DNA of 61,573 nucleotides, from positions 1 to 61,573 of the IMG/VR virus record IMGVR_UViG_2778261122_000001, one strand, 5' to 3'. The stretch comes from a virus (lineage: Duplodnaviria; Heunggongvirae; Uroviricota; Caudoviricetes). The notes below the pieces were generated by a model. It saw nothing but the letters and a program-made list of their open reading frames with translations. It made no database searches and was not told the DNA's origin. Position 1 is the stretch's first letter; each line of letters starts with the position of its first letter. Shown one piece after another: positions 27,482 through 28,419 of this stretch. The position numbers and the translations under genes were made by a program.

Positions 27482-28419
27482 CCCCTGAATCCTGCCGGGA
27501 TCTGGCTGTAGTCCACATTGTCGTAACTGGCTTTGAAGTACGGGTCTTCGCGTTTTTCTGTGTACGTGCTGACGGACGGCGATAAGCGCAGGGAAAGTTC
27601 ATCCCATTTTTCCCGCAGCTTCGACGGGCTGAACACGTTACGGCACCAGAACGGGTCGCGGCTGACGCGGCTGTACATCTCGCAGATTTGTTTGTGGGTA
27701 CGACCGTCCTGTACACACATCAGGCGAATTTCATTTGCCCAGGCTGTCCAGTTCGGTTCTTTGGGACGAACCACCTCGCCGTCACATTCGGCGGCCTGCT
27801 CGTACAGGGCGATGATTTTTTTCCAGAGCCACTGTGCGCAGGTCAAATCATCCTGCGTTCCCCACTGGCGCTTTTTAGGGCTGAATACAACCGCATCAGG
27901 ATGGCGAGTTAAAAAATCCTGTTCAGCCTTCTGCATGTCCGGTTGCGAAGCGTCCGGACGAGAAGGTTTTTTATCTGACGGATCATGTTTTGATTTTACT
28001 GACGGATCCCCGCCAGATTCTGACGGGTGAAAACCCGCTTTTTTGCCAGATTTCGACGCATCAAATTTTGACGGGTCAGATTTTGATGCGTCAGATTTTG
28101 ACGGGTCAGAATCTGACAGTTGAGAAAATGCCGCTGCCTGAAGCTTCGCAACGTTAAGCTGATAAACATTCGACGCATTGCGGTTACCCTGGCGACGCGC
28201 CTTACGCGTTAACCAGCCTTCTGCTTCCAGCCGTGCGATAGCCGTTCTGACGGTGCTCATCCCCGCGCCAATCTGGCGGGCAATGGTTTCAATTGATGGC
28301 CAGCACACACCTTCGTCATTACTGAAATCAGCCAGGCGGGCCATAATTGCCACGCTGGATAACTTCATGCCTGACGCAGCGCAACCATCCCATACATAGC
28401 CGGTTAATTTAGTGCTCAT
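27478..28419 (-). CDS. Replication initiator protein (origin iterons inside the gene)
   Basis: 313 aa; N-terminal HTH-like region, linker [22 protein letters not shown] encoded by the DNA iterons; lambda-O-like architecture. Confidence 0.65.
   Translation of the reverse strand: [313 protein letters not shown]
27970..28130. repeat. Origin iterons: about eight direct repeats of a ~15-16-bp unit (ATTTTGACGGGTCAG-like)
   Basis: Visible tandem units gattttgacgggtcag, attttgatgcgtcag, attttgacgggtcag, aatctgacag inside the replication gene. Confidence 0.7.

Follow-up and report, generated by a model that had tools for sequence, protein, structure and literature searches.

We analysed a 61,573-nucleotide stretch of DNA from a virus of the class Caudoviricetes (IMG/VR record IMGVR_UViG_2778261122_000001, positions 1 to 61,573; hereafter the window, 61.5 kb). 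The window holds the early-right operon of a lambdoid prophage, transcribed from the minus strand, and this operon contains a gene for a replication initiator of 313 amino acids (aa) in which a series of short DNA repeats is embedded. The original prediction, made from the letters of the sequence, took these repeats for the iterons of a replication origin built like that of phage lambda and saw no recognisable helicase-loader gene downstream. The locus is the replication module of a prophage of the SfII/SfIV/e14 type, and the complete 41.5-kb genome of phage SfII was used for comparison. The initiator ends in a tail that resembles the C-terminus of the host protein DnaT, and most of what follows concerns the repeats, this tail and the absence of a phage loader. 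The features of the initiator gene are listed below.

27478..28419, minus strand: initiator gene, 313 aa (phrog_391 over the full length, E=3e-135)
28126..28419, minus strand: region coding for the N-terminal winged-helix domain, residues 1-98, presumed to bind the iterons
27973..28123, no strand assigned: iteron array with the core TGAYGSRTCA, seven good sites and one degenerate, encoding a disordered linker (residues about 100-150)
27960..27999, no strand assigned: the most A+T-rich 40 base pairs (bp) of the gene (GC 0.325), a weak candidate for an unwinding region
27580..27936, minus strand: region coding for the C-terminal helical domain, residues 162-280, a homologue of the lambda O C-domain
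27481..27555, minus strand: region coding for the C-terminal tail, a proposed loader-recruiting peptide whose last 9 residues match the C-terminus of host DnaT

The replication module itself is ordinary: it is common, it has already been sequenced and annotated, and it is of a known kind. Over 2.8 kb round the initiator gene, the window shares 96-97% DNA identity with the Shigella phages SfII and SfIV and with the E. coli phages Kati, vB_EcoS-569R4 and PhiR29/49, and the same segment is partly identical to SfV and to Stx2c phages. The initiator gene was found in 2725 of 5426 complete E. coli genomes (about half), and 2372 homologues of the protein were found. RefSeq labels it only as a 'helix-turn-helix domain-containing protein', and the initiators of related modules are annotated variously as 'O protein family', 'replication protein' or 'primosomal protein I'.

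A domain search on the initiator, suggested together with the original prediction, placed the whole protein in the PHROGs group 'replication initiation O-like' (phrog_391); in Pfam, its N-terminal domain matched HTH_36 and not Phage_rep_O. The C-terminal domain aligned with that of lambda O, the part that interacts with lambda P, in BLASTP (30% identity over 216 aa, E=2e-25), and matches to phrog_277 and phrog_391 agree with this homology. In contrast, BLASTP gave no significant alignment between the N-terminal part of the initiator and lambda O, the N-domain of the window protein being HTH_36/DnaD_N-like. Pfam DnaD_N scored below the cut-off, and PHROG neighbours labelled 'DnaD-like helicase loader' reached marginal scores; these marginal scores make up the likeness to Firmicute DnaD and to the G38P-G39P system of phage SPP1, in which the loaders are DnaI or G39P. 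No Pfam DnaT match was found in the initiator, and PDB sequence searches with the initiator and with a profile of its C-domain returned nothing useful. The AlphaFold model shows two well-folded domains separated by a disordered linker (residues 103-154), in which the predicted local distance difference test score falls below 50 at residues 103-147 and 149-154.

We searched the whole window for the core TGAYGSRTCA, an imperfect 10-bp palindrome (TGAC-NN-GTCA), allowing at most one mismatch. Seven core sites were located within 133 bp (27976-28108), starting at 27976, 28000, 28021, 28054, 28069, 28084 and 28099. The remaining 61.4 kb contains about 27 core positions, which corresponds to an expectation of about 0.06 per 133 bp and to a Poisson probability of about 1e-12 for such a cluster. 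At 28114 there is one more unit, the eighth, of degenerate sequence (TGACAGTTGA). Tandem Repeats Finder detected an array of period 15 at 28047-28110 (4.3 copies) and also a period of 30 (2.1 copies). Both searches agree with the prediction that repeats lie at 27970-28130 inside the 313-aa early gene and are mirrored in the protein linker. Its description of about eight tandem units of ~15-16 bp was roughly right but too regular: seven sites are good, and a strict 15-bp tandem spacing is kept only in the four units from 28054 to 28099, the other spacings being 24, 21 and 33 bp.

The whole array falls within the open reading frame (ORF) of the initiator and encodes an SD(P/A)SK linker. Taken as its reverse complement, the iteron core supplies the Asp-Pro-Ser codons (GAYCCGTCA); since the core reads GAY-CCG-TCA on the coding strand, the protein repeats include DPSV and DPSD. 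Natural variants of the initiator range from 282 to 329 aa (for example P0007, P0009, P0015, P0017 and P0036) and differ by in-frame gain or loss of iteron/SD(P/A)SK units, the two 3'-proximal units, nearest the C-domain, being kept in all natural variants compared. Relatives that share the N-domain have the same core motif; it was found in SfII, in a homologue from Pantoea (L010) and in a Rac-like one (L013). In SfV, cdtI and ST64B, where the winged helix is divergent, other repeats (GGTGCAGGA, AATTCACTA) stand at the equivalent place. The annotated origins of lambda (in O) and P22 (in gene 18) also occupy an equivalent position within the initiator gene. The interpretation of the repeats as iterons of a lambda-type intragenic origin is thus well supported by their sequence and position. 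The lambda O/ori architecture originally proposed is upheld by the homology of the C-domain to that of lambda O, by the placement of the iterons in a disordered linker at the same place as those of lambda, and by a motif that varies with the N-domain.

As in lambda, the iterons have internal inverted symmetry and encode the linker of a two-domain initiator, the initiator gene comes after cro and a CII-like gene in the early-right operon, and the A+T-richest stretch (27960-27999) lies at the gene-downstream end of the array, where it overlaps the last two iterons. Whereas lambda has four iterons of 18 bp, the window has about seven, which are built on a 10-bp core and in four cases spaced 15 bp apart. 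The window also differs from lambda by the lack of a P gene and of a clear A+T-rich block, and by the replacement of the lambda O tail (...NTDWIYGVDL) by a DnaT-like one.

The initiator ends with SQIPAGFRG and E. coli DnaT with SQIPPGFRG, so that 8/9 residues are identical and both sequences stand at the extreme C-terminus. Across the DnaT orthologues compared (105), the shared motif IP.GFRG keeps its I, P, G, R and G without exception and its F in at least 90%. Relatives of the window protein carry longer DnaT-like tails of up to about 18 residues, with the motif RD(V/I)N..S.PD..IP.GFRG; homologues end with ...VNHISEPDTEIPPGFRG, and further endings among them are ...QRCVNHISEPDTEIPPGFRG or ...RDINRISRPDSTVPPGFRG. 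When profiles of the initiator and of DnaT were compared with hhalign, only the tail aligned (the last 34 columns, E=5e-5), thus ruling out that the whole C-terminal half is DnaT-like. As the profile match is limited to the tail, the initiator is not a member of the DnaT family, and the label 'primosomal protein I' in phage records reflects a tail-only match. Unlike DnaT (PF17948), the initiator has neither the N-terminal oligomerisation domain nor the acidic linker nor the three-helix domain that binds single-stranded DNA (ssDNA).

Comparison with SfV bears on the origin of the tail. The last 24 residues are identical between the window initiator and SfV orf39, while the globular C-terminal parts differ; SfV-type initiators share with the window protein only the type of winged helix-turn-helix (wHTH) and the tail. 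The DNA homology between the window and SfV (95%) runs from the PerC-family gene that follows the initiator gene to 27553 (position 4620 of SfV L002) and ends at the first tail codons. This indicates that the tail is a separate mosaic module, with a recombination joint within the initiator gene. In the searchable literature, older subscription papers aside, we found no description of a DnaT-like tail motif on phage initiators, nor is it treated in the papers on the Eru classification of Stx phages.

An alignment of homologues that are otherwise 55-75% identical showed three interchangeable tails: the DnaT-like tail, a lambda-O-like tail (...NTDWIYG...) and a tail of the form WNxxEAWExxL. We then took 80 loci with a lambda-O-type C-domain, one for each bacterial species, and classified the tail and the following genes. 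The loaders encoded after each type of tail were as follows.

Lambda-O-like tail, 27 loci: lambda P at 27, a DnaC-like gene at 0, no P, DnaC or DnaB homologue at 0
WNxxEAW tail, 27 loci: lambda P at 27, a DnaC-like gene at 0, no P, DnaC or DnaB homologue at 0
DnaT-like tail, 19 loci: lambda P at 0, a DnaC-like gene at 2, no P, DnaC or DnaB homologue at 17
Proteus-type tail, 9 loci: lambda P at 0, a DnaC-like gene at 0, no P, DnaC or DnaB homologue at 9

At the 17 DnaT-tailed loci devoid of a loader, the next genes encode a methylase, DUF977, DUF1627, a ParB-HTH protein or a PerC-family protein. The homologue P0105, which was fetched separately and is 59% identical to the window protein (loci L013 and L014), is followed by an IstB/DnaC-like gene. 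In the Rac-like lineage to which the tail ...EPDTEIPPGFRG belongs, the presence of a phage DnaC-like gene varies (L028-L030, L040 and L042 compared with L013, L014, L022 and L032) and the DUF1627 and DUF977 genes remain. From this comparison of gene content, the phage DnaC-like loader looks dispensable in that lineage. The fourth tail class, the Proteus type (...AWRGIWKQVAEQVAQE...), was observed on lambda-O-type initiators of Proteus and Providencia (L044-L052) and of Sodalis (L043), in proteins about 60 aa longer, and represents a second loader-less design.

The DnaT-type tail is also present on unrelated initiators that precede a DnaC-like gene: Rac YdaU (DUF1376; ending with ...VNTVSLPDSAIPPGFRG and followed by YdaV), the Gifsy-2 O-homologue and POCJ13 gp16. 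In the host, dnaT is directly followed by dnaC, and this order of a tail-bearing protein and then a DnaC-type loader is mirrored in Rac, Gifsy-2, POCJ13 and L013. The window initiator resembles in its tail those of the Rac YdaU-YdaV, phi80 gp15-gp14 type and Gifsy-1/-2 modules. However, these modules encode their own DnaC-like AAA+ protein, whereas the window and the other loci with the same tail variant encode none. The same tail was found on the Tritos and SPN1S initiators, with no loader after them.

The genes surrounding the initiator gene are the following.

29666..30358, plus strand: cI, early-right region
29308..29568, minus strand: cro-like gene, early-right operon
28764..29315, minus strand: CII/CP76-like gene, early-right operon
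28409..28630, minus strand: DUF4222 gene, 73 aa (Pfam DUF4222, E=3e-19, above the cut-off; annotated by RefSeq in identical modules)
26994..27481, minus strand: PerC-family regulator gene, split (Pfam PerC and MarR_2; phrog_1324 covers both halves)
26668..27027, minus strand: gene for a protein with a LexA DNA-binding domain (Pfam LexA_DNA_bind, E=4e-19)

After the last of these, the operon continues with RusA, KilA-N, DUF968/HNH and Q genes. The original prediction had listed 91, 83 and ~108 aa for the genes that follow the initiator. These are indeed small ORFs that do not encode loaders, but the 91-aa and 83-aa ORFs are not separate genes: they are the two halves of one PerC-family (yfdN-like) gene, of 161 aa in SfII, which in the alignment with SfII is broken by a 7-nucleotide deletion near 27266-27273. 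The ORF of ~108 aa is the one that encodes the LexA-DNA-binding-domain protein. The window also differs from SfII-type modules by the clean absence of dam, a gene of roughly 650 bp that follows the PerC-family gene in SfII and SfV.

Searches of the downstream ORFs against Pfam, PHROGs and NCBIfam revealed no loader and matched only PerC, LexA_DNA_bind, RusA, KilA-N and DUF968. A loader among these small ORFs had been named beforehand as the finding that would speak against the prediction; the profile searches, together with the assignment of the 91-aa and 83-aa ORFs to one broken gene, rule out such a hidden loader. We then searched all six frames with phmmer, using as queries lambda P, two other P proteins, E. 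coli DnaC, a phage DnaC-like protein, E. coli DnaB and P22 gp12. Neither the window nor the full SfII genome gave a match to the P, DnaC or DnaB families. Applied to the flanks of 80 near-identical viral contigs, the same search gave one weak match of 20 bits, at a contig end (L166), which was disregarded. A P-, DnaC- or DnaB-family loader elsewhere in the prophage was thus ruled out over the window, the SfII genome and the 80 viral loci. The same gene order without a loader was found in SfII, SfIV, SfV, e14-like prophages, ST64B, mEp390/mEp460, cdtI and Stx2a_WGPS2, several of which were deposited as isolated phages. As judged by these searches, the statement that no P or DnaC homologue lies downstream is correct, and the absence of a loader is general for this prophage family.

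On the other side of the initiator, the DUF4222 gene overlaps the initiator start by 11 nucleotides, and the two genes are likely to be translationally coupled. Small genes weakly related to it lie before the initiators of L011 and SfV. Its ORF also overlaps, in another frame, a 112-aa 'ymfM-like' ORF (28429-28767, minus strand; phrog_1170) that is annotated in phage records, whereas RefSeq calls DUF4222. Two further observations were made elsewhere in the prophage. A match to sar RNA in Rfam (RF00262, 72.7 bits) was found at 37757-37823 on the plus strand; in P22, sar is the antisense RNA of the immI/ant region, and from this match the prophage seems to carry a P22-like immI element. In the early-left region, a 187-aa ORF (31720-32283, plus strand) gave a weak match to YfbR-like HD-domain 5'-deoxynucleotidases (E=3e-5), just below the Pfam cut-off.

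These results suggest the following mechanism. The origin would consist of about seven imperfectly palindromic iterons (TGAYGSRTCA) in the linker-coding part of the initiator gene. The N-terminal winged helix would bind the iterons, probably as dimers, and by analogy with lambda an O-some-like complex may then open the adjacent A+T-richer DNA. The C-terminal half is, by homology, a lambda-O-type helical domain, and the lambda-type tail, which is paired with a P gene in relatives, is replaced by one that matches the DnaT C-terminus. Since DnaT-type tails were found only with DnaC-type loaders or with none, the tail may, on the simplest reading, be a loader-docking peptide that captures host DnaB6-DnaC6 directly, in which case no phage P or DnaC gene would be needed. 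The original prediction had already suggested that the initiator might recruit host DnaB/DnaC itself; the DnaT-like tail gives this suggestion a concrete candidate mechanism, which the link between tail type and neighbouring loader gene supports. We give this explanation as a whole, a lambda-type origin without a phage loader at which a DnaT-like tail recruits host DnaB-DnaC, a probability of about 0.55. Its parts are not equally firm. That the locus works as an origin with a solo initiator appears highly probable, while the odds that the tail acts by recruiting the host DnaC-DnaB complex may be put at roughly even.

How DnaT recruits DnaB-DnaC in replication restart is, according to recent papers, unknown (PMC11087952, PMC13377028), and published structural models use 4OU7, which covers DnaT residues 84-153, so that the tail (154-179) is absent from them. 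Several points weigh against docking of the host loader by the tail. The window tail matches DnaT only in about the last 9 residues, the match of ~18 residues belonging to relatives. Removal of DnaT residues 154-179 halved the affinity for ssDNA in vitro, a change in Kd of about twofold (PMC4132743), and the tail may therefore take part in binding DNA. For the recruitment of DnaB/DnaC, those who solved the 2026 preprimosome structure prefer the N-domain of DnaT (PMC13377028). In our survey, none of the 9 loci with a Proteus-type tail has a P, DnaC or DnaB gene nearby, which indicates that loader-less modules can exist without a DnaT-like tail. The loci surveyed are phylogenetically related, and the counts therefore overstate their independence. 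Moreover, the correlation shows which type of loader goes with each tail and not what the tail touches; DnaB within the DnaC complex, PriA, PriB and ssDNA are all possible contacts. At the origin itself, a scan of the base composition of the gene did not reveal a distinct lambda-like A+T-rich unwinding block.

The same origin and initiator could also work with a tail that docks on PriA, PriB, SSB, ssDNA or DnaB directly, the initiator then being a DnaT surrogate that starts a PriA-type primosome at the opened origin. DnaT does belong to the PriA-PriB-DnaT preprimosome, its tail contributes modestly to ssDNA binding, and no DnaT-DnaC contact has been demonstrated in the literature. However, the known contacts of DnaT map elsewhere, to the acidic linker for PriB and to the helical C-terminal domain for PriA. 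A tail that binds DnaB, PriA or SSB should moreover combine freely with lambda-P loaders, whereas P follows 0/19 of the DnaT-tailed initiators and 54/54 of those with a lambda-O-like or WNxxEAW tail. Together with the recurrence of the DnaT-type tail on unrelated initiators whose genes lie immediately before phage DnaC-like genes, this makes such a surrogate role rather unlikely. A loader or adaptor that our searches did not recognise, either the DUF4222 protein upstream or the wHTH+PerC protein downstream, would leave the tail irrelevant. The overlap of DUF4222 with the initiator start and the related small genes before other initiators would fit this proposal, as would the overlap of the PerC-family gene with the initiator stop in SfII, SfV and ST64B. 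Nevertheless, DUF4222-like genes are also present before initiators of modules that have lambda P (L010, L011), so that they are no substitute for a loader. The PerC-family gene is missing after the initiators of mEp390 and cdtI and thus cannot be an essential loader; it is also frameshifted in the window and scores as a transcription regulator. We regard an unrecognised loader or adaptor of either kind as improbable.

At the origins of the iteron plasmids pSC101, F and P1, DnaA aids the loading of DnaB-DnaC and the plasmid has no loader of its own. The module analysed here resembles them in lacking a loader, and host DnaA could play the same part while the initiator only opens the DNA. Unlike the iteron-plasmid origins, which combine Rep with DnaA boxes, the array has no DnaA box within it or next to it; the gene contains one site with 1 mismatch, and the total for the window, 123 sites against 119 expected, is at the chance level. 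Help from DnaA therefore has very little in its favour. Equally slight is the chance that the repeats are a mere low-complexity coding linker, the origin lying elsewhere or the prophage being replication-defective. The linker is indeed disordered and variable in length, and the prophage has a broken PerC-family gene and has lost dam. However, what is conserved is a palindrome in the DNA, TGAC-NN-GTCA, which has persisted through both synonymous and non-synonymous change (DPSK, DASK, DPSV). Different repeats stand at the same place where the DNA-binding domain differs, the origins annotated within lambda O and within gene 18 of P22 offer a parallel, and a near-identical module is present in isolated phages.

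Recruitment of host DnaB-DnaC by the DnaT-like tail can be set in a wider frame, which we propose tentatively and at somewhat less than even odds. The C-terminal 10-20 residues of DnaT would be the hand-over element from the PriA-PriB-DnaT preprimosome to DnaB6-DnaC6, and temperate phages would have acquired this peptide on repeated occasions, each time on a different kind of origin binder (lambda-O-type, SfV-type, DUF1376/YdaU and replisome-organiser type), loading the helicase by means of their own or the host DnaC-type loader. The window initiator would then be a natural chimera of an origin-binding domain and a DnaT tail that needs no phage loader. What is new here, the mimicry of the DnaT tail and its exclusive link with DnaC-type or absent loaders, appears undescribed. 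The correlation between tail and loader provides a specific, testable hypothesis for the recruitment of DnaB-DnaC by DnaT in replication restart. A one-protein replication module, present in sequenced Shigella, Stx and cdt phages, would account for replication with a single phage protein in a large group of lambdoid phages. If this is true, these phages, among them the converting phages for Stx2c, Stx2a and cdt, would depend on host dnaC and would not hijack DnaB by means of a P-type protein.

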